From Pristiophorus japonicus (Eukaryota), in NCBI RefSeq assembly GCF_044704955.1, contig NC_091979.1:317564001-317628000 (forward strand): a DNA stretch of 64,000 nt, in the 5' to 3' direction. Within the stretch, counting starts at the first letter, position 1. Each line of letters starts with the position of its first letter. The translations under genes and the position numbers were made by a program. Shown here in pieces: positions 6,001-49,689 of the stretch. The notes beneath the pieces were generated by a model. The model searched no databases. It saw only the letters and a list, made by a program, of their open reading frames with translations, and had not been told where the DNA came from.

Positions 6001-9000
6001 TAGAGAATGAGGATTTTAAATTTGAGAGAGGTAGAACAAAGTGGGATGGTCAAAGGGAGAGAAGATGCCAGACAAGTACAGAGAACTACCTCGGTGTGAT
6101 TTGGTGATAAATACCACACCGCCACAGCGGTCGTTTGGGTGAGGCCAGTGGTGAAAGGTATAGCCTGGTGGGAAAGATTCACTTGGGGGAAGGCACCTTC
6201 AACCATCAGCCAGGTTTCTGTCAAGACCCTGATGTCGCAGCAATCATCCACAGGGTTAGCTTTGGGAGGGGTGAGTGGGACGGGATGGAGATTGGAAAGG
6301 TTAATGCCCAGCTCTCACACTGAGTAGTAAGCTCAGCGAAGAATAGGATGAGGCAGTTTGAGTTGTTGCTCATAAGGAGAGAATGGTGAGTGTCTTGTTA
6401 GGCTCTCCGGAGAGTGCCAAGCGAGGCACAGGGGGCAGCTGTAAGCTTATCTAAGATGCAGTCAAACCTGTGAGGGCAGCATGAGTGCAGGAAGGTGGAG
6501 GTGAGCTGTCAGATTGGAGTAGGGAATTGGGAGGGCCGAGTACCCGAGAGGGGAGAAATGATAGGGGACACGTCGACAGAAGTGAGGGATCAATGAGGGG
6601 TAAAGAGAAATAAAATAAAGTGTCAGTGAAAAGCACAAGTAGAAGTGATAGGTTCGGGTCCGGAGAGGCAGACAAAATGCTCACGAGAATGGACACAGGG
6701 AAACTCAAGTTCCATCGGCCTGGTTACATAGCAATTACCCCACTCCATTTTAACTGCCTGCCTGTCGGTTTTCGCCAGGTAGGGGGGGAGTTAAAATCGG
6801 GACCACAAAGTCAGTTACAAAGGGGGAACGGAGCCAACAACTGATTTGTTGTGTATGTTATTCTATTATCCAGATTATTTGTTTCCTGATTGTGAAATTA
6901 GAAACTTAACCTGTTCAACAAAACTAACCATAACTGTTTTGCAATCTGCCTTCTCACCAAATGAGAATTTAAAAATTGCCAGGCTGGGAGCCAATGTATA
7001 TCAGTGAGCAAAGGGGTGATGGGTGAATGGGACGGTGTGAGTTAGGATACGGGCAGCAGAATTTTGTAAGAATTCAAGTTCATGGAGAATGGCAGATGGG
7101 AGGCCGGCCAGGAGAGCATTGGAATAGTCAAGGCCAGAGGTAACAAAGGCATGGATGAGGGTTCCAGCAGCAGCTGAGCTGAGGCAGGAGTGCAGTTGTG
7201 TGATGTTACTGAGGTGGAAGTTAGCAGACTTGCTGATGGAGCTGACATATGGTCGGAAGCTCATCTCGGTGTCAAATGTGACACCAAGGTTGCGAGTGGA
7301 CTGGTTCAGCCTCAGACAGTTGCCAGGGAGAGGGATGGAGTCAGTGGCTTGGGAACAGAGTTTGTGGTGAAGATTCCCAATATTTAGTTGGAAGAAATTT
7401 CTGCTCATCCAGTACTGAGTTTTGGATAACCAGTGTGACCAATTAGAAACTGTGAATGGGTCGGGAGAGGTGGTAGTGAGGTAGAGCTGGGTGTTGTCAG
7501 CACAGATATGGAACCTGATGCTGTGTTGTGGGATGATTTCACCGAGGGGAAGCATGATGTAGAGTAAAGGAGGGGGCCAGGGCTAGATCCTTGGGGAGTC
7601 CAGAGGTAATGCTGTGGTAGTGGGAAGAGAATCCATTGCAGATGATTGTCTGACTATGATTGGATAGAGAAGAATGGAACCAGGAGAGTGCAGACCCACC
7701 CAGCTGGAGGAGGGAGGAGAGGTGTTGCAAGTGATATTGTGGTCAACCGTGTCAAAGGCTGTAGACAGGTTGAGAACAATGAAGAGGGTTAGTTTAACAC
7801 AGTCACAGACACATAGGATGTCATTTGTGACTTTGATAAGGTTCGAATCAGTACTGGAGGAAAACTGATTGTAGGGTTTCAAACATGGATCTGCGGGAAT
7901 GATCAGCATGGATTTGGGAGGCGATGGCACATTCAAGGACATTGGAGAGGAAAGGATTTTGGAGATGGGTCAGTGGGTTGCAGGGACAGAGGTGTTAGGA
8001 ATGATTTTTTTTGAGGAGAAGGATGATGAAAGCAGATGTGAAGGGCTGGGGGACAGTACTTGAGGAGATTTAACAATATCTGCTGTTATGGGGGCCAGGA
8101 AGGGAAGTTGGGCGGTTATCAATTTGGTAACAATGGGGTTCGAGTGAGCAGGAGGTGGGTCGAATAGACAAGGGGAGCTTGGAGTGGGCATGAGGTGAGA
8201 TTGGGGAGAAATGGAGAAATATGCAAGTTCAGGGCTAGAGCAGAGGGAAACCATAGGTGAAGTTTGACCTGGTGGGCTCGGTGAAAAGACGGAAGCAGGT
8301 GATGCGGCTGAACGGATGGTTTCAATGTTTGTGACCAAAAAATCTATGACCTCCTCACACTTGTTTTTGGAGATGAGGGTGGAAGAGGCAGGAAGAGGGA
8401 TTTGGGAAGACTGTGTGTCAATAGAATAGAAGCCAGGGGCTTTCAATGCCTTCCAGAAAGATCGTGGAAAGGTGAGCATTTTTGGCAGAGGAGTGCAGGG
8501 CCCGATAATACTTTATATGCTGCAGTCAGAGCTGGCAATGAATAGCGAAACCATTTGTTTACCATAAAAATTCATGTCTGCATCCCTTGGGCTTGAGGGA
8601 GCAGTGATGAGGGCCGTACCAGGGAGAAGAACCAGAGTGAAAGAGATTAATGGTTTAAATGGGGACAAGAGCATCAGAGGTGGAGGTGAGGGAGTGATTG
8701 AGCAGATCAGTAAATGAAGAAATGTTGTGATCAATGGAGGGACAAATGCGAGGCAGTTGAGAATTTGAAAGTGCAGTGTTAAGTGACTTGGGGAGAGTTT
8801 TTTTTACAGTGGCAGACACAGAACGAAGTGAAGTTGTGAGGGGAAAGAGGGATGTGTGTTGTGAGCAATACTAGGAAGTGATCAGAGATGGCCTTATCTG
8901 TGATTGACACGGGGGGAACAGCGAGGCCAAGTGAGGAGGCAAGGTCGAGGGGATGGCCATGAATATGGGTAGGGGAGTTTATATGAAGGGAAAGATTAAG

Positions 9001-10260
9001 TGAGGATATGAGGGTAATGAACTCAGAGGTGAGAGAGAATGTTGAGTTAAGATGGAGGTTGAAATCACCGAAGATGAGAAATCAGTTGGTGCAGAGACTA
9101 AGGGAGGAAAGCAGTGAAGATATCTCGGTGGAAATTTGGCTCTGTATTTGGCTGGGCATTAGAGAATGAGGATTTTAAATTTGAGAGAGGTAGAACAAAG
9201 TGGGATGGTCAAAGGGAGAGAAGATGCCAGAGAAGTACAGAGAACTACCTCGGTGTGATTTGGTGATAAGTATCACACCGCCACAGCGGTCGTTTGGGTG
9301 AGGCCAGTGGTGAAAGGTATAGCCTGGTGGGAAAGATTCACTTGGGGGAAGGCACCTTCAACCATCAGCCAGGTTTCTGTCAAGACCCTGATGTCGCAGC
9401 AATCATCCACAGGGTTAGCATTGGGAGGGGTGAGTGGGACGGGATGGAGATTGGAAAGGTTAATGCCCAGCTCTCACACTGAGTAGTAAGCTCAGCGAAG
9501 AACAGCATGAGGCAGTTTGAGTTGTTGCTCATAAGGAGAGAATGGTGAGTGTCTTGTTAGGCTCTCCGGAGAGTGCCAAGCGAGGCACAGGGGGCAGCTG
9601 TAAGCTTATCTAAGATGCAGTCAAACCTGTGAGGGCAGCATGAGTGCAGGAAGGTGGAGGTGAGCTGTCAGATTGGAGTAGGGAATTGGGAGGGCCGAGT
9701 ACCCGAGAGGGGAGAAATGATAGGAGACACGTCGACAGAAGTGAGGGATCAATGAAGGGTAAAGAGAAATAAAATAAAGTGTCAGTGAAAAGCACAAGTA
9801 GAAGTGATGGGCTCGGGTCCGGAGAGGCAGACAAAATGCTCACGAGAATGGACACAGGGAAACTCAAGTTCCATCGGCCTGGTTACATAGCAATTACCCC
9901 ACTCCATTTTAACTGCCTGCCTGTCGGTTTTCGCCAGGCGGGGGGGAGGAGTTAAAATCGGGACCACAAAGTCAGTTACAAAAGGGGAACAGAGCTGGCA
10001 ACTGAATTCCTGTGTATGTTATTCTATTATCCAGATTATTTGTTTCCTGATTGTGAAACTAGAAGCTTAACCTCTTAAACAAAACTGTTTTGCAATCTGC
10101 CTTCTCACCAAATGAGAATTTAAAGATTGAGGCGTTGCCAGACTGGGAGCCAATGTATGTCAGTGAGCAAAGGGGTGATGGGTGAATGGGACGGTGTGAG
10201 TTGGGGTACGGGCAGCAGAGTTTTGGATGAATTCAAGTTCATGGAGGGTGGCAAATGGGC
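1..10260. repeat. Tandem macrosatellite, 3159-bp unit (3 full copies plus a diverging partial fourth; array continues off the left edge)
   Basis: Near-identical ORFs recur at exact 3159 offsets (133/3292/6451/9610; 683/3842/7001). Units 1-3 differ by only a few substitutions; divergence rises from about 9.2 kb onward. Confidence 0.97.
640..3130 (-). mobile_element. Degenerate L2-clade LINE making up most of the 3159-bp unit (copies at +3159 and +6318)
   Basis: Frameshifted ORF2 pieces: endonuclease 'DIRVLTETWL'; RT 'LNLSTAFDTVDH', 'FHICADNTQLYL', 'RNLGVTFD', 'LIHAFVTSGLDYSNALLAGLP', all typical of L2 RT. Confidence 0.85.
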
Positions 10261-16478: not shown

Positions 16479-17890
16479 GCTAGTTGGATCCAAAATTGGT
16501 TCAGAGGTAAGAAGCAAAGGGTAATGGTTGATGGATGTTTTTGTGACTGGAAGGATGTTTCCAGTGGAGTCCGCAGGGCTCAGTACTGGGTCCCTTGCTT
16601 TTTGTGGTATACATCAATGATCTAGATTTGATTATAGGGAGTATGATTAAGAAGTTTGCAGATGACACTAAAATTGGCTGTGTGGTCGTTAATGAAGCAG
16701 AAAGTCATGGGCTGCAGGAGGATATCAATCTACTGGTCAGGTGAGCAGAGCAGTGGCAAATGGAATTTAATTTGGAGAAGTGTGAGGTAATGCACTTTGA
16801 GAGGGCTAATAAGGAAAGGATATACACATTAAGCGGTAGACCATGGAAAAGATGAATAAAGGGATCTTGGAGTGCTTGTCCACAGATCCCTGAAAGTAAG
16901 GTGGATAAGGTGGTGAAGAAGGCATACGGAATGGTTGCCTTTCTTGGCTGAGGCACATAATACAAGAGCAGGGAGGTTATGCTTAAAATGTATAATACTT
17001 TGGTTCGGCCACAGCTGGAGTACTGCGTGCAGTTCTGGTCGCCGTATTATAGGAAGGACGTGATTGCAATAGAGAGGGTGCAGAGGAGATTTGCTAGGAT
17101 GCTGCCTGGAATGGAGAAACTTAGCTATGCGGATAGATTGGATAGGCTGGGTTTGTTCTCATTGGAACAGAGGAGGTTGAGAGGAGACCTCATTGAGGTG
17201 TACAAACTTTTGAGGGGCCTGGATATAGTGGATAGCAAGGGCCTATTTCCCTTGGTGGTGGGTTCAATTATGAGGGGGCATAGTTTTAAGGTGGTTGGTG
17301 GAAGGTTCAGAGGGGATTTGAGGGGTGGCTTTTTCAAGCAGAGGGTTGTGGGGGTCTGGAACTTAGTGCCTGGAAGGGTGGTGGATGTAGAAACCCTCAA
17401 CGCATTTAAAAGGTGCTTGGATGTGCACTTAAAGTGCCGCAATCTGCAGGGTTACACGGACCTAAAGCTGGTAAGTGGGATTAGACTGGATAACCTGTTG
17501 GCAGGCACAGCTATGATGGTAAGTACTGCAGGGAATCGAATATATCCAGGGTGATCTCCTGGACGAGTTTCGATTACTTGGATGGGTTGGAGAGGAATGT
17601 TCCGAGATATTTTTTTCCCAATTGACCTGGGTTTTTCTCTGTTTTTTGCCTTTCCCAGGAGATCACATGGCTCCGGTTGGGGAGGAGTGTAGAATGTTTT
17701 GGTGCAAGGGGTGTCGCATTTGTGTGGGGCTGACTGGTTGGGCTGGGTGCTCTTTACCTTTCTGCCATTGTTCATTGATCATACGTTTATATGTAACTTT
17801 CAGGGCTGCTGACTGAGGGCCGTATGTTTCTTTGTCGGCCGGTGTGGACACGATGGGCCGAAATGGCCTCCTTCTGCGTTGTAGATTTGC
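16479..17890 (+). mobile_element. CR1 LINE 3' portion, different subfamily from its neighbour
   Basis: WIQNWFRGKKQRVMVDG, KFADDTK, LVRPQLEYCVQFWSP, RRLRGDLIEVYK; 3' end 'gggccgaaatggcctccttctgcgttgtag'. Confidence 0.92.
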
Positions 17891-19189
17891 AATTGTGCAA
17901 AAATAAATGATGGCTTCTGCTCAAATGCCTTTTCAAAATAGTACTTGCATTGATTGATCAACTCAGCTTTCTGTTGAAAAGCAGGATTGCGAGGGGCTTT
18001 GCTGCCTGGATATTTGATCAGTTGAAATATTTTTTTTCTGTAACACTGACCTATTTGGTGGTGTATGAAGGTAGAGTTTGGGGTAATTTTTAATGCTTTC
18101 TTCAACAGCTCCACAGCTTTTTCCACATCTCCTCTTCTGTAAAATTTTGCTGCATAACGAGTTACATATGGAAGATCAGGGGACTTCTGCAATGCTTGTT
18201 CAACTAATTCGTGTTCTTCCACCTTTTGATTGAACTCTTGTAGTTTTAGAGCCAACAGCACCATGGCTACAGAGTCATCTGGATCAAGTCCCCACACGTC
18301 GCAACTGCTTCACTGATTGGCTGCGGTCACCACTCTCTGGGGTACGAGAAAACGTGTCCACACGAAACATAACAGTCGCATAGCCAACGTTCCATTCAGT
18401 GTCATCAGGATCTTCCTCCAGAGTCTTCTCAAAACATTCCTTTGCCTCTTCATAGTATTGACTAGGAGAATTCAACAGTGACCAACCCTTCTCCCCGTAT
18501 ACTTCAGGTCTCAGTGCTGTATACCGAGAGCCATCGGTAAATTGTTTACAGATCATCTCCAGCTTGTCGAGGTAGGACTGGGCCTCTGTCAGTTGGCCCA
18601 TGTGATAATATACCCAGGCATAGTTTCCATAGGTGATGATGCTTCTTCTTTCAAATTCATGTTCCTGATTCTCCCTCAGAATCTTTTCAGCTTCCTTTAA
18701 GTTTTGAATTGCCCCTTTGAATTGCCTTGCAGACAGTTTACAAATGCGAGGTGGTTGTCAGACCTGGCCTGATAATTCACACCAGCCAGTATTAAATCTT
18801 GTAATCTATACTTCATGTCGTCCAAGTCAATGCTGTCTCTCTGTGGGCCCCACGTGAAGTGACATTGAAGCTGGCTGAGTTTTGCTTTCAAGCAATCATT
18901 CAGTGTGTTGCTGTAGGAGAACAAAATAATCAAAGCCCATCTTATGTGTATCTAACTTACATTTTTAGCTCATATATAATCAACATAGCAATGCTGGTAA
19001 AGTCAGAATAGCAGAACAGATGAGCAGCTCAGTGCACATGGGCCCGGAACACTTCCCTACAGCCTCACTGCCTGGCATCCCTCAGTTCGGGGGAAACCCA
19101 TTGGAATCCTGTAATGGTCCCGGAGGCAATAACAAATGAACAATTGGCTCATGAGTGTCAGCAGAAATCCACGATCATCCATTAGTCTG

Positions 19190-19555
19190 ATCATAGGTAG
19201 GAACATAGGAACATGTTCCACCATTCAATTTATCATGGCTGAACTGTATCACAACTTCATCTACCCACCCTGGTTCTGTAACCCTTAATACCCTTGCCTA
19301 ACAAAATTCTATCATCTCAGTTTTGACATTTTTAATTGGCCTAACCTCGACAGCTTATTAGGGGAGAGAGTTCCAGATTTCCACTACCCTTTGTGTGAAG
19401 AAGAGCTGTCTGACATCACCCCTGAATGGCTGAGCTCAAATTTCACTTTCATGCCCCCTTGTTCTGGCCTCCCCCACCAGAGGAAATCGTTTCTCTCGAT
19501 CGACCCGGTCAAATCCTTTAATCATATAAACATCTCAATTAGATCATCCCTTAAC
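19190..19555 (-). mobile_element. CR1 3' fragment
   Basis: Tail-like 'cataggtaggaacataggaacat' and similarity to the 3' ends of the other minus-strand CR1 copies in the window. Confidence 0.6.
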
Positions 19556-19958
19556 ACTGGGGAAAGCGGGCTCGGGGAATGGGAGACTGGGGAATGGGGG
19601 CTCGGGGATAGAGAGACTGGGGAATGTGGGCTCGGGGAGAGGGAGACTGGGGAATGGGGGCTCGGGGAGAGGGTGACTGGGAAATGGGGACTCGGGGAGA
19701 GGGAAACTGGGGAATGGGGGCGCGGGGAGAGGGAGACTGGGGAATGGGGGCTCGGGGAGAGGGAGACTGGGGAATGGGAGCTCGGGGAGAGGGAGACTGG
19801 GGAATGGGGGCTCGGGGAGAGGGAGACTGGGAAATGGGGGCTCGGGGAGAGGGAGACTGGGGAATGGGGGCTCGGGGAGAACGAGACTGGGGAATGGGGG
19901 CTCGGGGAGAGGGAGACTGGGGAATGGGGCCTCGGGGAGATGGAGACTGGGGAATGGG
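19556..19958 (+). repeat. 30-bp G-rich minisatellite (GGGAGACTGGGGAATGGGGGCTCGGGGAGA)n
   Basis: Repeat read directly; 10-aa periodicity (GERETGEWGL). Confidence 0.95.
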
Positions 19959-20321
19959 TCAGGGGGGATCATGGTGAGGCCAGGCGGGAGGTAGAAGAGG
20001 CCAGGTTGAGTGTAATTTATTCTGTGGTGGCCTGGAGGAGCTGGACTGATCCCTGGGCTCCAGACAAGGTCACTGGGCCTCTCCAGCCCTGGCCTTCTCT
20101 CACACACCACAGCAACTCCCTTCAGCCCCCTCCCAGCAGATCCCTTCAGCCCCCTTCCAGCAGATCCCTTCAGTCCCCTCGCAGCAGATCCCTTGAACCC
20201 CTCAGCAGATCGAGCTGCCGGGGGTGGGCAGAGCTTTCGGGGGGTTGGGAGTCGGGAAGTTGGGTTTGGAGGGTGGTGGGAGAACTCGGGACCGGGAGAG
20301 GCGGGGATTATCTTTAACCTA

Positions 20322-20363
20322 CCCGGCAACTGATGATGCAACTCGCAGTATTTGTCTGATTGG
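20322..20363 (+). promoter_or_regulatory. MHC X-Y promoter module (X1/X2 and Y boxes of the SXY enhanceosome)
   Basis: X1-like CCCGGCAACTGATG (20322-20335; compare HLA-DRA CCTAGCAACAGATG), overlapping X2/CRE-like TGATGCAA, then Y box CTGATTGG (20356-20363) 20 nt after X1, the conserved spacing. A second CCAAT box (CCAATCAG) lies at 20487-20494. Orientation matches the downstream MHC-I gene. Confidence 0.75.
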
Positions 20364-20547
20364 ATAGTTCAATGTTTGGAAAGTTTATTTCGGCACCAAC
20401 ACAAACTCTCCCCGTGTCTTTTCTACCCGGAGCCTGCTGACTCACAGCCTGTTTTTATTGTAATTGGAGACAAATATACCCTCGAACCAATCAGTCCGGA
20501 GGAGTCTGAGTGTAAAACACTCTGCACTGGGCAAAGCGCACGAACAG

Positions 20548-23500
20548 ATAGCACAGAGAGACAGTCCCAGAGACACAGTATCAGCACAGGGCACCGAGAC
20601 AGTCCCAGAGACACAGTATCAGCACAGGGCACAGAGAGACAGTCCCAGAGACACAGTATCAGCACAGGGCACAGAGAGACAGTCCCAGAGACACAGTATC
20701 AGCACAGGGCACAGAGAGACAGTCCCAGAGACACAGTATCAGCACAGGGCACAGAGAGACAGTCCCAGAGACACAGTATCAGCACAGGGCACAGAGAGAC
20801 AGTCCCAGAGACACAGTATCAGCACAGGGCACAGAGAGACAGTCCCAGAGACACAGTATCAGCACAGGGCACAGAGAGACAGTCCCAGAGACACAGTATC
20901 AGCACAGGGCACCGAGAGACAGTCCCGGAGACACAGTATCAGCACAGGGCACAGAGAGACAGTCCCAGAGACACAGTATCAGCACAGGGCACAGAGAGAC
21001 AGTCCCAGAGACACAGTATCAGCACAGGGCACCGAGAGACAGTCCCAGAGACACAGTATCAGCACAGGGCACAGAGAGACAGTCCCAGAGACACAGTATC
21101 AGCATAGGGCACAGCGAGCCAGTCCAGAGACACAGTATCAGCACAGGGCACAGAGAGACAGTCCCAGAGACACAGTATCAGCACAGGGCACAGAGACAGT
21201 CCCAGAGACACAGTATCAGCACAGGGCACAGAGAGACAGTCCCAGAGACACAGTATCAGCACAGGGCACAGAGAGACAGTCCCAGAGACACAGTATCAGC
21301 ACAGGGCACAGAGAGACAGTCCCAGAGACACAGTATCAGCACAGGGCACAGAGAGACAGTCCCAGAGACACAGTATCAGCACAGGGCACAGAGAGACAGT
21401 CCCAGAGACACAGTATCAGCACAGGGCACCGAGAGACAGTCCCGGAGACACAGTATCAGCACAGGGCACAGAGAGACAGTCCCAGAGACACAGTATCAGC
21501 ACAGGGCACAGAGAGACAGTCCCAGAGACACAGTATCAGCACAGGGCACCGAGAGACAGTCCCAGAGACACAGTATCAGCACAGGGCACAGAGAGACAGT
21601 CCCAGAGACACAGTATCAGCACAGGGCACAGAGAGACAGTCCCAGAGACACAGTATCAGCACAGGGCACAGAGAGACAGTCCCAGAGACACAGTATCAGC
21701 ACAGGGCACAGAGAGACAGTCCCAGAGACACAGTATCAGCACAGGGCACAGAGAGACAGTCCCAGAGACACAGTATCAGCACAGGGCACAGAGAGACAGT
21801 CCCAGAGACACAGTATCAGCACAGGGCACCGAGAGACAGTCCCGGAGACACAGTATCAGCACAGGGCACAGAGAGACAGTCCCGGAGACACAGTATCAGC
21901 ACAGGGCACAGAGAGACAGTCCCAGAGACACAGTATCAGCACAGGGCACCGAGAGACAGTCCCAGAGACACAGTATCAGCACAGGGCACAGAGAGACAGT
22001 CCCAGAGACACAGTATCAGCATAGGGCACAGCGAGCCAGTCCCAGAGACACAGTATCAGCACAGGGCACAGAGAGACAGTCCCAGAGACACAGTATCAGC
22101 ACAGGGCACAGAGACAGTCCCAGAGACACAGTATCAGCACAGGGCACAGAGAGACAGTCCCAGAGACACAGTATCAGCACAGGGCACAGAGAGACAGTCC
22201 CAGAGACACAGTATCAGCACAGGGCACAGAGAGACAGTCCCAGAGACACAGTATCAGCACAGGGCACAGAGAGACAGTCCCAGAGACACAGTATCAGCAC
22301 AGGGCACAGAGAGACAGTCCCAGAGACACAGTATCAGCACAGGGCACCGAGAGACAGTCCCGGAGACACAGTATCAGCACAGGGCACAGAGAGACAGTCC
22401 CAGAGACACAGTATCAGCACAGGGCACAGAGAGACAGTCCCAGAGACACAGTATCAGCACAGGGCACCGAGAGACAGTCCCAGAGACACAGTATCAGCAC
22501 AGGGCACAGAGAGACAGTCCCAGAGACACAGTATCAGCACAGGGCACAGAGAGACAGTCCCAGAGACACAGTATCAGCACAGGGCACAGAGAGACAGTCC
22601 CAGAGACACAGTATCAGCACAGGGCACAGAGAGACAGTCCCAGAGACACAGTATCAGCACAGGGCACAGAGAGACAGTCCCAGAGACACAGTATCAGCAC
22701 AGGGCACCGAGAGACAGTCCCGGAGACACAGTATCAGCACAGGGCACAGAGAGACAGTCCCAGAGACACAGTATCAGCACAGGGCACCGAGAGACAGTCC
22801 CGGAGACACAGTATCAGCACAGGGCACAGAGAGACAGTCCCAGAGAGAGAGTATCAGCACAGGGCACAGAGACAGTCTCAGAGACACAATATCAGCACAG
22901 GGCACAGAGAGACAGTCCCAGAGACACAGTATCAGCACAGGGCACAGAGAGACAGTCCCAGAGACACAGTATCAGCACAGAGCACAGAGAGACAGTCCCA
23001 GAGACACAGTATCAGCACAGGGCACAGAGAGACATTCCCAGAGACACAGTATCAGCACAGGGCACAGAGACAGTCCCAGGGACATAGTATCAGCACAGGG
23101 CACAGAGAGACAGTCCCAGAGACATAGTATCAGCACAGGGCACAGAGAGACAGTCCCGGAGACACAGTATCAGCACAGGCACAGAGAGTCAGTCCCAGAG
23201 ACACAGTATCAGCATAGGGCACAGTGAGACAGTCCCGGAGACACAGTATCAGCATAGGGCACAGAGAGACAGTCCCAGAGACACAGTATCAGCACAGGGC
23301 ACAGAGAGACAGTCCCGGAGACACAGTACCAGCACAGGGCACAGAGACAGTCCCAGAGACACAGTATCGACACAGGGCACAGAGAGACAATCCCAGAGAC
23401 ACAGTATCAGCACAGGGCATAGAGACAGTCCCAGAGACACAGTATCAGCACAGGGCACAGAGAGACAGTCCCAGAGACAGAGTATCAGCACAGGGCACAG

Positions 23501-26064
23501 AGACAGTCCCAGAGACACAATATCAGCACAGGGCACAGAGAGACAGTCCCAGAGACACAGTATCAGCACAGGGCACAGAGAGACAGTCCCAGAGACACAG
23601 TATCAGCACAGGGCACCGAGAGACAGTCCCAGAGACACAGTATCAGCACAGGGCACAGAGAGACAGTCCCAGAGACACAGTATCAGCACAGGGCACAGAG
23701 AGACAGTCCCAGAGACACAGTATCAGCACAGGGCACAGAGAGACAGTCCCAGAGACACAGTATCAGCACAGGGCACAGAGAGACAGTCCCAGAGACACAG
23801 TATCAGCACAGGGCACAGAGAGACAGTCCCAGAGACACAGTATCAGCACAGGGCACCGAGAGACAGTCCCGGAGACACAGTATCAGCACAGGGCACAGAG
23901 AGACAGTCCCAGAGACACAGTATCAGCACAGGGCACCGAGAGACAGTCCCGGAGACACAGTATCAGCACAGGGCACAGAGAGACAGTCCCAGAGAGAGAG
24001 TATCAGCACAGGGCACAGAGACAGTCTCAGAGACACAATATCAGCACAGGGCACAGAGAGACAGTCCCAGAGACACAGTATCAGCACAGGGCACAGAGAG
24101 ACAGTCCCAGAGACACAGTATCAGCACAGAGCACAGAGAGACAGTCCCAGAGACACAGTATCAGCACAGGGCACAGAGAGACATTCCCAGAGACACAGTA
24201 TCAGCACAGGGCACAGAGACAGTCCCAGGGACATAGTATCAGCACAGGGCACAGAGAGACAGTCCCAGAGACATAGTATCAGCACAGGGCACAGAGAGAC
24301 AGTCCCGGAGACACAGTATCAGCACAGGCACAGAGAGTCAGTCCCAGAGACACAGTATCAGCATAGGGCACAGTGAGACAGTCCCGGAGACACAGTATCA
24401 GCATAGGGCACAGAGAGACAGTCCCAGAGACACAGTATCAGCACAGGGCACAGAGAGACAGTCCCGGAGACACAGTACCAGCACAGGGCACAGAGACAGT
24501 CCCAGAGACACAGTATCGACACAGGGCACAGAGAGACAATCCCAGAGACACAGTATCAGCACAGGGCATAGAGACAGTCCCAGAGACACAGTATCAGCAC
24601 AGGGCACAGAGAGACAGTCCCAGAGACAGAGTATCAGCACAGGGCACAGAGACAGTCCCAGAGACACAATATCAGCACAGGGCACAGAGACAGTCCCAGA
24701 GACACAGTATCAGCACAGGGCACAGAGACAGTCCCAGAGACACAGTATCAGCACAGGGCACAGAGACAGTCCCAGGGACATAGTATCAGCACAGGGCACA
24801 GAGAGACAGTCCCGGAGACACAGTATCAGCACAGGGCACAGAGAGACAGTCCCAGAGACACAGTATCAGCACAGGGCACAGAGAGACAGTCCCAGAGACA
24901 CAGTATCAGCACAGGGCACAGAGAGACAGTCCCAGAGACACAGTATCAGCACAGGGCACAGAGACAGTCCCAGGGACATAGTATCAGCACAGGGCACAGA
25001 GAGACAGTCCCGGAGACACAGTATCAGCACAGGCACAGAGAGTCAGTCCCAGAGACACAGTATCAGCATAGGGCACAGAGAGACAGTCCCGGAGACACAG
25101 TATCAGCATAGGGCACAGAGAGACAGTCCCAGAGACACAGTATCAGCACAGGGCACAGAGAGACAATCCGGAGACACAGTATCAGCACAGGCACAGAGAT
25201 TCAGTCCCAGAGACACAGTATCAGCACTGGGCACAGAGAGACAGTCCCAGAGACACAGTATCAGCACAGGGCACAGAGACAGTCCCAGAGACACAGTATC
25301 AGCACAGGGCACAGAGAGACAGTCCCAGAGACACAGTATCAGCACAGGGCACAGAGAGACAGTCCCAGAGACACTGTATCAGCACAGGGCACAGAGACAG
25401 TCCCAGAGACACAATATCAGCACAGGGCACAGAGAGACAATCCCAGAGACACAGTATCAGCACAGGGCACAGAGAGACAGTCTCAGAGACACAGTATCAG
25501 CACAGTGCACAGAGAGACAGTCCCAGAGACACAATATCAGCACAGGGCACAGAGAGACAGTCCCAGAGACACAGTATCAGCACAGGGCACAGAGACAGTC
25601 CCAGGGACATAGTATCAGCACAGGGCACAGAGAGACAGTCCCGGAGACACAGTATCAGCACAGGCACAGAGATTCAGTCCCAGAGACACAGTATCAGCAT
25701 AGGGCACAGAGAGACAGTCCCGGAGACACAGTACCAGCACAGGGCACAGAGACAGTCCCAGAGACACAGTATCGACACAGGGCACAGAGAGACAGTCCCA
25801 GAGACACAGTATCAGCACAGGGCATAGAGACAGTCCCAGGGACACAGTATCAGCACAGGGCACAGAGAGACAGTCCCAGGGACACAGTATCAGCACAGGG
25901 CACAGAGAGACAGTCCCAGAGACACAGTATCAGCACTGGGCACAGAGAGACAGTCCCAGAGACACAGTATCAGCACAGGGCACAGAGAGACAGTCCCAGA
26001 GACACAGTATCAGCACAGGGCACAGAGAGACAGTCCCAGAGACACAGTATCGGCACTGGGCACA
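20548..26064. repeat. 40-bp minisatellite (CAGTCCCAGAGACACAGTATCAGCACAGGGCACAGAGAGA)n, about 138 copies
   Basis: Repeat read directly, with 38- and 39-bp variant units; 40-aa periodicity in overlapping ORFs. Confidence 0.98.
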
Positions 26065-26161
26065 GGAATCACACGGTCTGAATTGGGCGCAGCTCACGGA
26101 CGGTCTCTCGGAAAAGGATTGCCTGCAAACTGCTCATCCCAGCCTGTCGAGGGAAGTAACA

Positions 26162-27209
26162 ATGTTTGGACTGACCGTGCTGGCCCTTCTGTGTGGAGAG
26201 GTGTGTGCAGGCTCTCACTCCCTGCGGTACATGCACACGGCTATCACTCCGCTCCCGGGCATTGCTGAGTTCACCGATGTGGGTTATGTGGATGACCAGC
26301 AGTTTATTTACTATGACAGTGTGAGCCGCCAGTACACCCCGCGGCAGCGGTGGATCAGGGAGAGCGAGGGCGCCGAGTACTGGGAGCGCTACACACAGAT
26401 CCTGCGGGGCAAGGAGCAGGTGATGAAAGGCAACATTCAGACCGTCTTAACCCGCACCAACCAGACCGCCGGGATCCACACGCTGCAGAGGTTGTGCGGC
26501 TGTGAGCTGCGGGATGACGGCACCACCAGCGGCTTCTGGCAGTACGGCTGGGACGGGAAGGACCTGATCAGCTTCGACAAGGATCGCCTGGTGTGGGTCA
26601 CCCCGGTACCGTGGGGAGAGATCACCAAGAACAAGTGGGACCAGGACAGGGCCGAAATGCAGCAGGACAAAAGTTACCTGGAGCAGGAGTGCATCGAGTG
26701 GCTGAAGAAATACCTGAAGGCTGGAGAGAGAGAACTGGGAGCTGTTGCTCCTCAAGTGTTTCCTTCTGTGGACAAGGCGTCAAATATTAAAGCCCCCCAA
26801 CTCTCCTGTCTCCTCACAGGTTTTTACCCTCGCGAAATCCAAGTGACCCTCCTGAGAAATGGCGAGCCAATCAGGGACACGGAATCCACGGGCATCCTGC
26901 CCAATCACGACATGGGCTCAGATCGAGCCCGCGGATGGAGCCACCTATTCCTGTCAGTATGAGCAGAGCGGCCAAGCAGGAGGGAAGACCCGAGACTGGG
27001 ACGGGACGTACCGAGTGACTCCAGGATCGCCAGAGGGAATAAATAGGGGTTTGATTGTTGGAATTGTGATTGCTGCCGTCGCCCTGATTGCTCTTGTGAT
27101 CGGTGCGGTTGTGTGGAAGAGGAGAGGAGGAGAGGAGACATCTGGTTACAGCCCAGCGAACCCTGCTGAACGAGGAGAATTATCCCCAAACTCAGTAGCC
27201 CAGTCCTGA
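26162..27209 (+). pseudogene. Single-exon (intronless) MHC class I heavy-chain gene with a frameshifting deletion in alpha3
   Basis: Signal peptide MFGLTVLALLCGEVCA; alpha1 GSHSLRY...VGYVDDQQFIYYDS...EYWER...RTNQT; alpha2 HTLQRLCGCEL...GKDLISFD...ITKNKWD...YLEQECIEWLKKYL; alpha3 LSCLLTGFYPREIQVTLLRNG...ILPNHD. The frame shifts at about 26910 to TWAQIEP..YSCQYEQ, TM GLIVGIVIAAVALIALVIGAVVW and tail KRR..SGYSPA..*(27209). No intron at any domain boundary. Confidence 0.93.
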
Positions 27210-27454
27210 GGCTGATCCCGAAGTGAAGTTCACTGGGACTAGAATCTGGACTTGCTGTGTCGCAAGGAGGGTTCATTCAGAAGCAATCCACGATTCTGCA
27301 TCTTCATTTCGTTTGATTGTCACTGGCTGCTGCCAGTGTTAATAGTAATCGGTAATGTATCTATCATTGAGTGGGTTTGGGGATATTTTCTTTTTGGTGA
27401 TTGGATAGAAATCTCCAGTTGGGTCTTTTGGTGTTTAATGTAAATGAGATGTGT

Positions 27455-27521
27455 CGATTTCGGCACGGGCTGGATGGCCAAATGGTCGTCTTCCGTGCTG
27501 TAACCATTCTATGATTCTATG
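27455..27521 (+). mobile_element. Short CR1-type 3' end with (ATTCTATG)n tail
   Basis: 'ggcacgggctggatggccaaatggtcgtcttccgtgctgtaaccattctatgattctatg' resembles the CR1 terminal stem-loop plus octamer tail. Confidence 0.6.
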
Positions 27522-27531
27522 TATGGTGGCC

Positions 27532-28131
27532 GGGGGAGAGGGAGACTGGGAATGGGGTGGGGGGAGAGAGGGAGACTGGGAATGGGGTCTTGGGGAGACG
27601 GAGACTGGGAATGGGGGCTGGGGGAGAGAGGGAGACTGGGAATGGGGTCTTGGGGAGAGAGAGACTGGGGAATGGGGGCTCAGGGAGAGGGAGACTGGGG
27701 AATGGGGGCTAGGGGAGAGAGGGACTGGGTAATGGGGGCTCAGGGAGAGGGAGACTTGGGAATGGGGCCTCGGGGAGAGAGAGACTGGGGAATGGGGGCT
27801 TGGGGAGCGGGAGACTGGGGAATGGGGGCTTGGGGAGACGGAGACTTGGGAATGGGGCCTCGGGGAGAGAGAGACTGGGGAATGGGGGCTCGGGGCTCGG
27901 GAGACTGGGGAATGGGGGCTTGGGGAGAGGGAGACTGGGGAATGGGGGCTTGGGGAGAGAGGGAGACTGGGGAATGGGGGCTCTGGGAGAGGGAGACTGG
28001 GGAATGGGGGCTTGGGGAGAGAGGGAGACTGGGGAATGGGGGCTCTGGGAGAGGGAGACTGGGGAATGGGGGCTCGGGGAGAGAGAGACTGGGGAATGGG
28101 TGCTCGGGGAGAGGGAGACTGGGGAATGGGG
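27532..28131 (+). repeat. 30-bp G-rich minisatellite, second block
   Basis: Same unit as 19556-19958. Its right flank (28132-28464) is the reverse complement of 45196-45597 and 52136-52551. Confidence 0.95.
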
Positions 28132-28464
28132 TGGGTGTGGGTTCTAGTATTTCCCCCAGAGCCGGGAGCAGCAGCAACGTGGTGAGTGGGAGTGACACTG
28201 AGAGAGGAGCAGCCAGTAAAGGGGTGAGTGAAACCTGGGGACCTTACTGTGGGTAAATAGTGAAAGATTATTTCCAGTGGTGGGCGAATGGGGAACTAGG
28301 GAACGGAAACCAAAGATTCTAAAACCTAAAGGGAATGTGATAAATATTTGAAAAGGAAGAATGTTATAAGATCTGGGGGTGGGGTGGGCGGGGGGGAATG
28401 GGATTACAGAAGAGAGTGCGAGCTCCGAGGCCGAATGATCTCCTCCTGTGCAGTCATTTCTATA

Positions 28465-31160
28465 AATGCATTCCCCACTCTGCTCAATGTGCTGAAGTTG
28501 CAGCCCTGGTGACAGCAATCCAAATGACTTATGACATACCTGTTAATGCCTGGCCAGATAGTGCCTATGCGATTAACACTTTGTTACCTTTATCGCTGTA
28601 TGCTCGGAACACGATCAGCCCCTGTTTATGTTGGTAAGAAGTCTCACTCACCATCTTTGAACTTACACACCCGGAGCAACTCACAAGCAGATCATGCTGC
28701 TACAGATGCCACCGTTAACCTCTGGCAAGCTCCTACCCCTCCCTTAAGGTCTGTCCCGAGTATTCAAGGTGGGGACATCGATCTCCCGGTCTCTAGGCCA
28801 GTTATCTTCCCTATGCGGTTGTTATTGCATGGCATCGGGATGGATGTCCGTTGTCTCAGCCCACTCCATGGGCTGTGGACACACAATTGGCTCCAGATCA
28901 GTCTGGGAAATCTGCCATCCTGTTAATGTATGGGCCCTGCTTGCGGTGGCTATCATCTGATCTCCCAGTTGTCTGTGTTCCCCCATCCATGGCACCCAAA
29001 ATGTTTGATCTCCTCCATTGACACCCGGTGGGAGGACACTATTCAGCCGATGCAACTGTTCAGAAACTACGCAAATTTGCATGGCATCATAATTGTGTTA
29101 CTGACGTCACTCATAGAGTGAATGTTGCCTGCCCTGTTTACAGCAAAACCCAAGTGCCACATGAAGCGAGCACTGTTGGGAAGTCCCCCTTCTCCCGAGG
29201 GGGCCAAGGTCCCACCTTCAAATTGACTTTATAGGCCCTTGCCTACAGGGCCTTCTAGGTTGTGGTATTGTCTGGTTGTAGTTGATACGTTTACAAAATG
29301 GATGGAGTCTTTTCCATGTAAAACAAACACAGTATTGACAGCAGCTCGCCTATTATTGGGTGAGGTGAGCTGCAGGCAGGGAGTGCCAATTCAGGCTGAT
29401 ACCGCACAAAGTTTTACCGAGCTGCAACGGACAATGAGTATGTTGCATAAACTTCACATCTCCCACCGTCCACAATCATCTGGAATGGTGGAAAGAGGAA
29501 ATCGAATTCTGAAAATTATGTTAAACAAATTTGGTGCAGATCACCCCACCAAATGGTCTAGCATGCTGTCAATGTGCCAGATAGTTATTAGATCCACCCC
29601 GCATAGCACAACGGGTATTTCACCCTACCAAGCTATGACTGGGCGACTAATGCGAATGCCAGCCCATCTGTTAACCCCTTCAGTTACACCCTTAGTACAG
29701 GGAACTGCCAACCAAAAATGGCTTGAAATGTAGCCAGACAGACAGGGAAGTCAAGAAGCCAGGCATAGAAACACTTCGATAAGCAGTTCCGACCTTTTGA
29801 ACATCAAGTGGGAGATATCGTAATGCTACTAAACTATGGGAAGCAACAACATTGCTTCGAACCAAGGTGGAATGGCCCCATTCCCGATTATTGACGGGGT
29901 CAGTTCTTCGGTCTATCTGTTGCAATTCCCTGGGGAAAAAGGGGAGGACCAAGGGGGCTAAATAGTACCATATCAATCAGTTGAAAACCGTGAAAGAATA
30001 AATATTGCATGTTTTATCTTATAGAACCAGTTAAGAATGATCAGTTATCGAACCCTCCTGCTGGAGGTCATCATATACTTCAGACATTCGAACAGGTCTC
30101 AGACATGCTCAGTTACTTGACAACAGAAGATGTGAAATGGTTAATGTGGCTCAGGGAAGTGAGACAATTAACACATACTCCATCGAGAATCAATCTAATT
30201 AATGACAAAGAGAGAGATTTGGAGAATCTTTTAAGTCCATGACTTGTTGATTAGATGTTAAACTTCAGCTTTCTGTACAATGTCTGTTTTCATTACCTGC
30301 ATCAATGTTTGCTGGACATGTATATACTTAGTTGATGTGCTACTGATTGTCAGACTGAATTGTAACTATAATAATTATGTTTGGTAGGTAACAGAGCGTG
30401 GGAAAAGCCAGTACGAATCCAGTATGAGGGTTTTGATGCTGCCTCCTGTAGTATGTTTTACGGGTCTAAAGAGCCTCTTTCAAAACCGATACTGAAGTGA
30501 AACTGACAGTAAATGAGATACTTCAGTATAAGCTGCACAATTAAGTGGTTCAATTGGTACGACATTCAGAATGGTGGGATATTGGGCCTAATATATCAGT
30601 ACATTCTTAGGTTCAAATTATTTCACACGCTCTGGTAATTATTTAACTTGTGATGATAGTGTATTTGATATTTGATTAATTGAACACAACAAAAGGGAAT
30701 ATGTGAAGCAACACAGAGGAAACCCCAGGTGGGGTAAGATCAGGAGAGATACAAGAAACAGAGGATAGCCCAGGCAGGGCAGAATTGGAACACCGGAACA
30801 GTGAATTGAATTTGAGAAAGGGCTCAGAGGTTGCAACTCCCGTTTAAAGGAACGGATTGTAACAAAGGGGAAAATCTTCATTTTTGTATCACCCTTAGCA
30901 AAATCTAGAGTTGGCATGGTTAGTAGAGGTACGGAAATGAGAGATCGAAATAACTTTCTCTCAAGGAGGGGAATATGTTAGAAATCAGGGATACCGAAAA
31001 ATGTATAAAACTGTTATGAATGTATAAAACTGATACGAATGCTGTGTTTAAATCATTGTTTTGAACTAAAGACGGAATATCTATCAGCTACCTGTTACGA
31101 TTGTATGTTTTTGCGATACAACTAATGTGTTATATTCCATCTTAAAGTCTGATTAAACAC
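28465..31160 (+). mobile_element. Degenerate endogenous retrovirus-like element: RNase H, integrase, possible env remnant, PPT and start of 3' LTR
   Basis: RNase H 'HSAQCAEVAAL...NAWPDSAYA'; HHCC region 'GGHYSADATVQKL...ACPV'; integrase core 'VVVDTFTKWMESFP...HRPQSSGMVERGNRILK...TGISPYQAMTGR'; GPY/F tail 'VGDIVML...PRWNGP/FPII...YHINQLK'; polypurine tract AAGGAGGGGAA (30963-30973) followed by TGTTAG at 30976. Confidence 0.8.
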
Positions 31161-38826: not shown

Positions 38827-41800
38827 TCGGCAACGCTGATTTTCCCAGCTAAAACTAAACACATTTCTGAAGGATGCATTAATAGTCTCTGATCTATGAG
38901 AAGGTTTGTTCGGGTACTCACTTCACATGTTATATTCTGCTGGCACTTGCTTTCGAATGAACATTTTACTTGTGTGTATAATTTTCAAACGATGATCTTA
39001 TTGTAATTATTTTAAATTCCTGTGCTTCATTCAAGAATATTGACACCACTGGAGCACTACCCAAATAGGATGTGTTTCCATATCCTTAGACCTTTTGCTA
39101 TGTGTGGAATTAAACAAATCAATGTAGGTTTGGGGGAATTAGAGTTAATTGGGCCAATTGGACAGAGCCACAATAGTTGTTTATGAATTGGAGGAACTGT
39201 TTTTAAAACAAAAATACACATTACATGGGCCTGATTTTAACTCCAGACGGGTTTTGGGTGGGTGAGTGGTGAGGGGAATGGGAAACTCACCTGTTGCTGC
39301 AGATATCGGGCCCGGGGTATTTTAAATCCCCAACTTCATTATCGTGCGGCCAGTCCACTTCCCTCCCGTACGGCGTGCAGGTCGGTGCGTTGAAGGAGTT
39401 TCGGGGAGGGTCTCGGGGGAAGGACTGATGAGGGGGAAAATGTAGTTGTGCCTCGTTCGGGAGCAGGAACACTCGCGAGGTGTGAGACTTTGAACCAGGC
39501 GCACAAGTCTTGCCTCTCGTGAGAAATTGGGTTTACCACCACAAAAGGAAGTGGGGCACAAAATAACGCACTCCACTTCCTTTCTGGGGCGGTAGTGAGG
39601 TGAACGGATTGGGAGCAGGGCACAGCACTACACACTGGGCCACTTACTGCTTCCACGTAGGAGGGACTCTTCCCTTAATGAAAGGGAAGCGACCAAGCTT
39701 CAAACTCTGCAGGAATGACAGGGTCCTACCTGGACCAGTGAGGAGTGGGGGTGCTGTGTCCAAAGCAGAGTGCCGCACTGAATGATCGGGGCATGGACCG
39801 TATTCAAAGCACCAATGGGGTTCAGGATAAAATCGCCATCATTTTTTCTTTAATGACCCACACCTCCCCGGTACATGTCCCCTGAAGCTGTCGATGGCAT
39901 TGCTTGGCACAGCTTCAGGGGCTGATACCTAATTTACAGTCCGGGGCACTAACGGGACACAGCGGAGAGGGGCACTACAGGTTATTGCCACCACTAAACG
40001 CTCGCGGAAATTAGTGGGACCAGTTCGTGGAGCCGCGCACAGGCTAAAAGTCATTTGCACCCCAATGGGGCACTAACGGGAGGCGCTAATGCCCCAAATT
40101 ACCAGGCCATATTCTTTTTATGGTAATGATGGTGTAAAAAAAATCTCCAATCCAGCCCATAGAGGGTGCAATAAAACCACTCTGTCGACCTATCTTTCAC
40201 TTGCTGCCTCTTCACAATAAAGTCCCCCATCGGGTGAAAGGCTTTCCATGTGTACCAGCTGAGAGAGGACCAACGACCACTGCAGGCCCTTCAAATAAAT
40301 CATCAGCTTGATTCTGTTGCTGTGAAGCTTTGCTGACAGACGATTGGGCTCCCATCCAGAGCGTTCATTCAGATCTCAGCCTCTGTCACTGGGAGTCTCC
40401 CTGCCCTGTAACTGGTCAGCTGCACCTGCTCTTCATCAAACCTTCTGTGTCCCTCATTGGCCAACACAGAGCAGCTTGGACAATACCCGGGAAAGTCCCT
40501 TTTCCAGAGACTGTCACTATCACGATGAAGGGAAACGCAGTGGAGGGAGGAAAGTTAAAGGATATAGAAATAGGTTCAAATGGGTTAAAAAGCAATAAAA
40601 CGCAATGGCTGCAGACACTGATTGTCCAAACAGAGAATGTAATATGAGAGAGTGAATATTAAATAACCAATAAAATAAAACTGTGGCAAAGATTTAATTT
40701 CTGTTGTTGATCTGATGGGAAAAACCTGCACGATATTTTCTGGCAGTCGGTAATGTTTATGGCCATTTGCCACCATTTGGCGAACGGCAATTCATACATT
40801 TCATCTTGGTCACCACAGAGCCGATTGGGCCAAAGATGAGCAGAAGTCCATTTTATGGAGACTGTCGTCATCTCAGCTAAAGGAAGACACAGTAGACGGA
40901 GGAAAGCTAAGAGGATATAAGAAGAGTTTCAAAATAATGAAAACGTTATCATTACAGACACAGATTCTGCCAACAGAAGTCACACACGCCAATGATACTT
41001 GCCGGTTACAACCCAGACAGCAATGATCCTCTGCCAGTGAGGATGGTTTACAATCCCCCATTTGCCGATTTGGCAATTTTGTAAAGAAAAGGTAAAGTTC
41101 ATTGAAACATTTTGTTCCTCCTAGTAGTAGATTCTCTGCTGCTGACGAGAAAATTAAGTTTTAAAATTAATTCCCAAAGGAAATAGAGAATAAGTTGCAA
41201 TAAAATTGAACCAATGAACCTTCCTTTTTTGTCAAAATATTAAAAGATAATCCAATGCCCAAGCTCATTATAGAATCCAATGTATTTGAAAATGCACAAA
41301 ATAAGTTGTTAAAAAGCATTTTGGAGTTCACATCTTTTTTGAGGGTTGAGTCAGGTTCTTTGAAAGAGTTGATGAGCTTTTGCTACTTGTCGAAGTGTGG
41401 AAATTATGGGAAGTGCATGTGATTGGCTGTTGATGGAAGACAGGATGGACATTGGTGTGGTGTCCCACATAGTCAAACACCCTGCTACACTCGATGGTCT
41501 CCCATCAATAATGGGCCCCTGGGTGAGGTACTGGAGGGTGACCAGTGCCCATGGGACTGTGTCCCACAAGGGAGTCAACACCTTAAGGAGCGGAGAGAAG
41601 GGCAACAAATAGCAGAGAAAACGGGTAAGAAACAAAAACCTTTCTGGTTACTGGGTGTTCCCAGGCCCCAGGATGTATTTTCTGGCACTGCACAGGTGTC
41701 CTCTCCACCTCTAACCCAGAGGTGACTGCTGGGATGTTCTGGAAAACTTACACATTCATACATTCACACAAAAGTGCAGAGCAACAGTGTGAGTGAGAGC

Positions 41801-42024
41801 CACAATGTGATCCGATTGTGAGCTCCCTCAGTGCATTCCCACTGCAGCCTTCCTTCCTCCTTCCTACCCTCGGTGTGGAAGAAGTGCTTCCTGATTTCTC
41901 TCATCATAAGTGTAACTAATTATAAGACTCTGCTCCCTTGTTCTGAATTCCCCACCAGAGGAAATAGTTTCTCTGTATTGACCCGATCGAATCCCATTAT
42001 CATTTTAAACACCTCAATTAGCGG

Positions 42025-42300
42025 TGAGGCCATTGAGGGATTTGAAAACAAGGATGAGAATTTTAAAAGCGAGGCGTTGCCGGATGGAGCCAATGCAAGT
42101 CAGCGAACACAGGGGTGATGGGTGAATGGGACTTGGTGCGAGTTCGGATACGGGCACAGAGTTTTGGATAAGCTCAAGTTTACAGAGGGTGCAAGGTGGG
42201 AGGCCGGCCAGGAGAGCATTGGAATAGTCGAGTCTCGAGATAATTAAAGCGAGGATGAATGTTTCAGCAGCAGATGAGCTGAGGCAGAGTCGGAGACGGT
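42025..42300 (-). mobile_element. L2 RT C-terminal fragment (duplicate at about 47757-48030)
   Basis: Homologous to positions about 640-870 of the 3159-bp unit. Confidence 0.75.
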
Positions 42301-46593: not shown

Positions 46594-46663
46594 TATCCGG
46601 GAATACAAACCTTGCAGTGTTCCGGCTGATCGGCTAACTGAAGGTGAAATCCAGATCAGCATC

Positions 46664-49600: not shown

Positions 49601-49689
49601 CGATAACTTCCAAGAACCAGGAGACTACCCGTGAGCAGACGGATAAGGGAATCCGAGGGTGGAAAAAGGGGGAATCTGAGGACCGGGAA

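Follow-up and report, generated by a model that had tools for sequence, protein, structure and literature searches.

A class I retrocopy with a partial X1-X2-Y promoter and a 40-bp repeat array in an IFIT cluster of the sawshark Pristiophorus japonicus

The gene, its family and its landing site

The window (the whole 64,000-nucleotide stretch of Pristiophorus japonicus DNA analyzed here) carries on its forward strand an intronless MHC class I coding sequence (26162-27209), preceded by an array of 40-bp repeats and, further upstream, by an X1-X2-Y promoter module. Loss of 20 bp after 26904 throws it out of frame, and the 266-residue product ends at 26962 without the transmembrane part. The window copy is the pseudogene of a family of nine genes, eight of which have intact frames and encode 355 residues each; in the single assembly used, the nine copies show 0-18 differences over about 1450 bases. 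The earlier sequence-only reading had described a promoter together with its gene, and its module, array and ATG are all real, but the frame-breaking deletion had escaped it.

The insert lies within a cluster of IFIT genes on C3. Upstream of it, on the reverse strand and head-to-head with the retrogene, is a broken IFIT exon 2 with stops and frameshifts (17800-18910), lacking exon 1 as well as the ISRE promoter. It is followed by a reverse-strand CR1 fragment, the end of ORF2 (19214-19555), and by a GA-rich 30-bp minisatellite on the forward strand (19556-19958). The other half of this minisatellite resumes behind the insert (27523-28131, forward) and gives way to a flank (28132-28465, forward) found again behind the array of an unoccupied IFIT site. 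Unbroken arrays of the same 30-bp type sit just upstream of IFIT promoters. The copy was inserted into a minisatellite of the IFIT cluster and then amplified to nine copies. As both flanks belong to one minisatellite, any target-site duplication would be masked. We also considered that the copies might borrow an adjacent IFIT promoter and rejected the idea: in the 10-kb stretches surveyed around the copies, none has the promoter unit next to it.

Sequence comparison identifies the gene as a processed retrocopy of an MHC-linked, intron-containing class I gene. That parent lies on C19, with a PSMB9-like exon about 260 kb away, and among 46 matches it is the sole intron-containing gene of the copy's alpha3 type (83% identity). 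The alpha3 domain clusters with the parent and dogfish AAN77874; a quick alpha1 tree leaves the copy unplaced. Intron loss is precise at all seven exon junctions, that of the 3′ UTR intron included. The sequence-only reading had suggested two other routes, removal of the introns in situ through cDNA-mediated conversion or transfer of the gene as a DNA block; the rival weighed here joins the two, with gene and promoter moving together once the introns had gone. Although the promoter and a far-upstream class I unit do stand in the correct order, such a move would require breaks exactly at the end of a CR1 tail and exactly at an AG. Moreover, the copy is on another chromosome with all seven introns gone, its tail is not followed by the parent's 3′ flank, it is bounded by IFIT minisatellite, and the MHC-linked loci that we inspected include no class I gene without introns. 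We therefore regard this explanation as very improbable and already largely refuted.

The promoter piece and the repeat array

Motif scanning and alignment to paralogs place an X1 box at 20322-20335, overlapped by an X2-like box, TGATGCAA (20334-20341), and, after a 20-nt spacer, a Y box, CTGATTGG (20356-20363), all on the forward strand. These boxes and their spacing are as the sequence-only reading had given them, and 20 nt falls within the 20-22 nt expected between X and Y in an SXY module. The X1-Y pair has a single match in the window, compared with a chance expectation of 0.02, and only 2 of 100 shuffles produced one. The inherited proximal promoter continues (20364-20550, forward) with TGACTCA at 20438-20444, CCAAT at 20487-20491 and a degenerate TATA-like element at 20511-20519. 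Its identity to the promoters of intron-containing class I genes is 78-85% for five of six and 72% for the sixth, so that the assignment to an MHC promoter holds up in alignment: the module is a true piece of a class I promoter. X1, Y and CCAAT are identical in all nine copies. The suggestion that the module would sit about 280 bp from the ATG if the array were removed was also about right, since the distance from X1 to the ATG is 294-318 bp in four of the six paralogs (577 and 758 bp in the remaining two). An origin of the module in a common repeat, which the sequence-only reading had said would count against it, is rejected: of 17 promoter matches in the genome, 16 are at class I genes or copies.

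However, the module is an X1-X2-Y piece and not a full SXY, because the retrocopy promoter has neither the S box nor the ISRE that its parent carries, an absence on which the sequence-only reading had not remarked. A full SXY module binds RFX, CREB and NF-Y and recruits NLRC5 or CIITA. Sixteen nucleotides before X1, five of the six intron-containing paralogs have CCAACCT, whereas the window has AGGCGGG, and in none of the nine copies does CCAACCT occur at the 5′ junction or in the sequence upstream of it. At 19441 the CR1 fragment contains a word resembling an ISRE; we rejected it as a substitute, only three of the nine copies carrying it. The window copy can be compared with the SXY enhanceosome of class I and class II promoters described in PMC4374748. 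X1, X2 and Y with 20-nt spacing are common to both, and the X1/X2 core GCAACTGATGATGC occurs in a printed primer for the mouse H2-Eb promoter. H2-K has CTAACCT at the same spacing before X1 as the CCAACCT of the shark paralogs, and the parent gene has an H2-K-like ISRE as well as an S box at 16 nt. The copy differs in having neither the S box, the basis of NLRC5 specificity, nor the ISRE. The recruitment of NLRC5/CIITA that had been attributed to the module is not supported for the copy, given that NLRC5 needs the S box (PMC4374748).

Between the promoter and the coding sequence lie 139 units of a 40-bp VNTR (20551-26065, forward; period 40, 139.1 copies by repeat scan) and an inherited 5′ UTR that contains ctgctcatcccag (26066-26161, forward), so that the described succession of 40-bp array and ATG is correct. 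The six intron-containing paralogs have 0, 0, 1, 1, 3 and 6 units of a class I 5′ UTR repeat, and by homology the array is this repeat in expanded form. The array is specific to the retrocopy family: all 285 genome-wide matches of one of its 27-mers fall within the copies, which rules out a common repeat here as well. Array size ranges from about 22 to 139 units across the nine copies. The longest belongs to the single frameshifted copy, and two intact copies have 112 and 124 units.

The array likely lies in the untranslated leader. The putative start site, at about 20544-20550, is deduced from where two processed copies of one paralog begin, and both of these copies retain their UTR repeats (2 and 9 units) while having lost intron 1. 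The leader is free of ATG in all nine copies. An alternative is that the array is absent from mature RNA, either because it is spliced out or because transcription starts near its 3′ end and the X-Y module acts as a distant enhancer. In its favor, an extra exon further upstream appears in three of the six gene models in the database, whose products have 380, 380 and 385 aa, and there are AG sites at about 26090 and 26142. Yet these gene models conflict among near-identical copies, there is no GTRAG donor between promoter and array (seven of the nine leaders have none at all), and the processed copies of the paralog keep the repeat. The supposed splice acceptor ending at 26142 turned out to be part of the inherited 5′ UTR, the same site being found in two C11 genes without an array. 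Taken together, we consider absence of the array from the mature RNA unlikely.

The 5′ junction and the CR1-type tail

The insert begins with a segment containing a 24-bp repeat (19957-20212, forward) that resembles a class I upstream unit. Over its core (19993-20158) it is 80-83% identical to a unit located 2.8-15 kb upstream of four intron-containing class I promoters, in the orientation seen at those four loci. In this assembly the unit is missing from the 44 kb upstream of the parent; therefore, either the donor allele differed or the piece was derived from a paralog. Next comes a G-rich stretch (20213-20312, forward) in which GAGGCGGGG, which we take to be GC-box-like, covers the S-box position (20299-20305). 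No significant match to 20213-20312 was found on either strand of the four upstream regions or elsewhere in the genome. Homology to the parent promoter then starts at the junction (20313-20321, forward), right after a CAG of the parent that constitutes a putative acceptor between S and X1. The junction is spanned by a contig of sequencing run X1 (kind of run unrecorded).

The acceptor-like site is moderate, with 11 pyrimidines among 17 positions, and is conserved in five of six paralogs; by chance alone, a break would fall this close (within 1 nt) to a site of this kind with a probability of 2-17%. The copied transcript probably started upstream of the normal promoter start, and the partial promoter was likely kept because the source RNA, being upstream-started, was longer than usual. 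As to how the junction itself arose, we lean toward splicing at the AG. The same retrocopy could, somewhat doubtfully, have acquired its junction in another way, either because a long, unspliced copy suffered a deletion in the genome afterwards or because the reverse transcriptase switched templates. No splice donor for the junction was found, 100 bp have no source, the upstream piece retains an apparent donor and intron-like sequence, and coincidence with any YAG is 17% likely by chance, all of which suits deletion or switching. On the other hand, the break coincides precisely with the end of the CAG in a pyrimidine-rich site that five of six paralogs keep, and both similar short words are retained, unlike in a microhomology deletion.

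The 3′ UTR (27210-27521, forward), from which the UTR intron of the parent is gone, terminates in a CR1-type tail (about 27463-27521) that stands in place of a poly(A) tract of the L1 type. The end of the copy coincides with the end of this tail, the parent's UTR continuing further, and none of the parent's 3′ flank follows. Of 11 distinct matches to the tail, four have CR1 ORF2 within 400 bp upstream, four are the parent or its copies and three are neither. The parent gave rise to five independent retroposition events. Three of them stop at the tail, namely those behind the C3 copy, a C14 copy and a dispersed family taken as a single event; two stop elsewhere. Although host mRNAs are considered uncommon templates for CR1, these observations make it likely that CR1 machinery primed reverse transcription at the CR1 tail in the parental 3′ UTR.

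SINE/LINE shared-tail retroposition by stringent LINEs (CR1; HE1/HER1 in sharks), as outlined in PMC3747384 and PMC5470649, similarly involves a LINE 3′ tail and no poly(A), but here the cargo is a full protein-coding mRNA with the tail inside its 3′ UTR. Retrogenes with a parental promoter, such as Pgk2, likewise combine an upstream-started transcript with a parent-derived promoter before an intronless coding sequence, and among retrocopies expressed in human and mouse about 3% are reported to have inherited a parental promoter (PMC4772013, PMC5470649). Compared with the Pgk2 type, the inherited promoter here begins only between S and X1, apparently from a splice acceptor onward, a CR1 tail replaces poly(A), and amplification to nine copies followed.

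Overall, we put at roughly 0.7 the probability of the following reading: the gene is a retrocopy with X1-X2-Y and a core promoter but no S box or ISRE, derived from a likely upstream-started, spliced RNA by CR1-tail retroposition into an IFIT minisatellite, now in nine copies, with the array likely in the 5′ UTR. An upstream-started class I transcript would have been spliced into the promoter at the AG between S and X1, and the spliced RNA reverse-transcribed by CR1 machinery by way of the CR1 tail in the parental 3′ UTR. The cDNA would have been integrated into the IFIT minisatellite, the locus amplified to nine copies, and the class I 5′ UTR repeat expanded into the array. RFX and NF-Y would be predicted still to bind the promoter, NLRC5 would be recruited poorly, and transcription would start just before the array. 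The resulting leader of 1.0-5.7 kb, free of ATG and predicted to be weakly folded, would lower but not abolish translation of a nearly invariant, peptide-binding class I chain.

Selection, expression and biological meaning

The coding sequence has the marks of past constraint. Parent and copy align without gaps over 355 codons, compared with nine gaps in 526 bp of flanking non-coding sequence; about nine indels would be expected on one branch of the coding part and none is seen (P ~ 1e-4). Pairwise dN/dS, which mixes both branches, is 0.49 (0.38-0.69) overall, 0.30 (0.14-0.68) in alpha3 and 0.92 in the transmembrane/cytoplasmic part. All eight peptide anchors, YYRTKWYY, are kept in the intact copies. 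Hence purifying selection probably acted on the protein after insertion, and its trace, an intact frame, is seen in eight of the nine family members, the window copy being the exception. Positive selection at peptide-contact positions was considered and rejected, with 18 of 57 contact positions differing as against 38 of 122 others (P = 1.0). Among the eight intact copies, 8 of the 13 variable codons are residue-changing, and therefore there is no support for present-day constraint.

The family may be functional, its members being class I genes of one exon that bind peptides and arose by retroposition outside the shark MHC. In this view splicing took away the S box and ISRE and ended NLRC5 control, amplification of the IFIT cluster carries the copies along, interferon enhancers of the cluster are possibly used, and a leader of 22 to 139 units sets output, much as the sequence-only reading had suggested that array length could tune or silence expression; we hold this to be a speculative, rather unlikely reading. 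It is also possible, though again doubtful, that a family once under selection is now a silent passenger of IFIT amplification, with a weak promoter and unconstrained array growth. The absence of S box and ISRE from the promoter, the missing neighboring IFIT promoter unit beside all nine copies, the longest array in the sole frameshifted copy and the residue-changing variation all fit silence. Against it stand the eight intact frames, the unaltered X1, Y and CCAAT in every copy, the arrays of 112 and 124 units in intact copies and leaders without a single ATG.

The family shares all eight peptide anchors with elasmobranch class Ia and Ia-like/Ib molecules (PMC10751288; dogfish AAN77874; nurse shark PDB 6LUP), but its genes have a single exon, hardly vary, exist in several copies and lie away from the MHC chromosome. 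Classical class Ia genes are highly polymorphic and linked to PSMB8/9 and TAP; here the copies are on C3, whereas the parent is near PSMB9 on C19. According to PMC10751288, whose main text does not name the sawshark genus, no class I gene lies outside the MHC in the surveyed genomes. The family departs from the rule stated there, by which the class I genes of elasmobranchs remain within the MHC. The route proposed here would let an edited promoter pass to a retrocopy, and the CR1-tail route can yield a full-length retrogene. Nine near-identical genes with leaders of about 1.0-5.7 kb represent a natural series for the effect of a 5′ UTR repeat on expression, and the parent-copy pair is well suited to testing the role of the S box in NLRC5 recruitment in cartilaginous fish.

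A class I gene without introns and its source

The X1, X2-like and Y boxes (20322-20363), the 40-bp array of 139 units (20551-26065) and the ATG (26162) picked out by the sequence-only reading were all borne out, and the X1-Y pattern has a single match in the window against 0.02 expected. The gene 3′ of the array (26162-27209, forward strand) is that of an MHC class I heavy chain, with the shark structure 6LUP as closest solved relative. A search with alpha1 gave 35 matches, nine of them on chromosome 3 (316.6-319.3 Mb) at 98-100% identity; module, array and intronless gene are present in all nine, and a tenth promoter was found on a small contig. The 355-aa frame is intact in eight copies. 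The window copy, whose frame stops at 266 aa because of a 20-bp deletion in alpha3, is the sole pseudogene of the family. For an intact sister copy, the top database match is 100% identical and carries the source label Pristiophorus japonicus. Among contigs of run X1 (run kind unrecorded), one has an intact alpha3 and another spans the 5′ junction, which is therefore not an assembly artefact.

All parts of the copy find a match at 71-87% in an intron-containing gene on chromosome 19 (54.654-54.676 Mb), which, among 46 matches, is the only intron-containing gene with the copy's alpha3 type. All seven GT-AG introns of this parent, including one 3′ of the stop codon, are precisely absent from the copy. 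Such precise removal makes an RNA intermediate certain in practice. The routes initially envisaged, intron loss in place or movement as a DNA block, are wrong. The parent lies ~260 kb from an exon with PSMB9 as best matches, in agreement with what PMC10751288 describes for the class Ia region, and this PSMB9-like linkage makes it a likely classical class Ia gene. The same paper reports no class I gene outside the elasmobranch MHC in the genomes surveyed, whereas the present genome has intact copies on chromosome 3 and intron-containing class I genes on chromosome 11. The latter (148.4-148.6 Mb, L091-L096), off the MHC chromosome, have kept the S box and X1 and have a damaged Y box.

The two ends of the retrocopy

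Promoter comparison confirmed that the module is homologous to those of six intron-containing class I paralogs. The proposed SXY module nevertheless held only in part: X1, the X2-like box and Y are present, but the S box and ISRE are missing. Five of the six paralogs have CCAACCT 16 nt 5′ of X1, preceded by an ISRE-like word, much as mouse H2-K has CTAACCT at equal spacing, 3′ of its ISRE (primer text, PMC4374748); the retrocopy has neither of these H2-K-type elements. Its identity to the parents begins immediately 3′ of their CAG between S and X1. On the 5′ side of this junction it carries ~255 bp matching a unit located, in the same orientation, 2.8-15 kb upstream of four paralog promoters. 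The simplest reading is that a transcript started far upstream and was spliced into the promoter, in which case the S box and ISRE would have been lost as an intron. However, no donor site was found, and the acceptor is moderate (11/17 pyrimidines; chance 2-17%). The source of the 100 bp between the upstream unit and the junction was not found either, and in the assembly used here the 44 kb 5′ of the parent lack the unit. Retrocopies with a parental promoter, acquired through an upstream start, are described as known but rare, at ~3% of expressed mammalian retrocopies (PMC4772013). Since S box replacement is reported to abolish NLRC5 activation in mouse reporters (PMC4374748), a weak NLRC5 response is predicted for the retrocopy promoter. 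In shark class I promoters, a class II-like X box (14/14 with H2-Eb) stands together with an S box and ISRE of class I type, a layout possibly close to the ancestral module.

At the 3′ end, homology between copy and parent stops where a short tail in the parent 3′ UTR ends; the parent runs on, and the copy's 3′ end has no poly(A). Of 11 distinct matches to this tail in the DNA examined, four follow the end of CR1 ORF2, four are the parent or copies, and three have no ORF2 within 400 bp. Twenty retroposition loci were reduced to independent events by counting 15 as one dispersed family, dropping one derived from another paralog and taking the rest singly; three of the resulting five events from the parent terminate at the tail and two elsewhere. 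Because stringent LINEs are described as recognising their own 3′ end (PMC3747384, PMC5470649), the copy's RNA was likely primed by CR1. The dispersed family (L130-L143, L146) carries a spliced alpha3-to-UTR piece of the parent with common flanks, and its members reach the tail. Additional processed class I copies, all decayed, occur on chromosomes 6, 13, 2, 17, 36 and 14 (L087, L088, L089, L090, L144, L145); that on chromosome 17 has its 5′ part inverted.

The array as a probable inherited leader

A related 39-40-bp repeat lies between core promoter and ATG of the paralogs (0, 0, 1, 1, 3 and 6 units). Alignment of the array unit exceeds 200/200 shuffles for the 6- and 3-unit repeats and equals the shuffle maximum for a single paralog unit. 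Two processed copies derived from the 3-unit paralog lack intron 1 but retain the repeat, in 2 and 9 units, so the array is likely 5′ UTR by descent. Both begin just 5′ of the first unit, which maps the normal start and would place that of the window copy at ~20544-20550. The candidate acceptor at 26142 turned out to be inherited UTR sequence; three of six database gene models add upstream exons, inconsistently. Given that none of the nine leaders contains an ATG and that one piece of 300 nt folds more weakly than its shuffled versions (-36 vs -68 kcal/mol, 30 mononucleotide shuffles), ribosome scanning through the leader would be possible in principle. The arrays number ~22, 24, 24, 27, 29, 29, 112, 124 and 139 units. 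The three copies with long arrays are mutually closest (1-7 differences in ~1450 bp, vs 12-18 to the others), which argues for a likely single and recent expansion.

Amplification in the IFIT cluster and the encoded protein

Most IFIT matches (84/97) fall at 316.35-319.54 Mb of chromosome 3; genome-wide, the IFIT expansion is very large, with 11/97 matches on chromosome 5 (24.7-25.1 Mb). An intact IFIT gene has an unbroken 30-bp minisatellite immediately upstream of its ISRE-TATA-exon 1 unit. The retrocopy interrupts a minisatellite of this kind, head-to-head with an IFIT gene, and the IFIT promoter unit is gone beside all nine retrocopies. Flanks are common to the copies at 95-98% over kilobases, so they multiplied as DNA along with the cluster. 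Elsewhere in the window, 41243-53967 consists of two to three duplicated blocks that contain repeats of 23, 15 and 30 bp. Within this region, 53481-53700 is an IFIT promoter on the forward strand, complete with tandem ISREs, a TATA and exon 1, which recurs at 46481-46693. Other elements include a tandem array at 1-10259 (3159-bp unit, 98-99% identical, with LINE reverse-transcriptase fragments inside), an LTR retrotransposon at 54227-58911 (253-bp LTRs 96% alike; integrase and RT domains) and retroviral-like remnants at 28461-30000, with an integrase-like frame lacking a Pfam match; this last block lies ~6 kb later in sister copy L055.

Comparison with the parent points to an encoded protein maintained for a long time in the past. 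The alignment is gap-free over 355 codons, with ~9 indels expected on one branch, and dN/dS is 0.49 (alpha3, 0.30; TM/cytoplasmic part, 0.92). All eight peptide anchors are kept; the pocket residue set differs. Divergence is 0.16 in UTR and promoter, and dS is 0.19-0.26 outside alpha1 and 0.79 within it, the last value suggesting that the copy's alpha1 may come from a different allelic lineage than the parent's.

A search of mostly open-access literature turned up no report of a class I retrogene in sharks. A retrogene that inherits its promoter is of a known kind; what sets this family apart is the edited promoter, the CR1 tail, the expanded UTR repeat and the amplification in the IFIT cluster.
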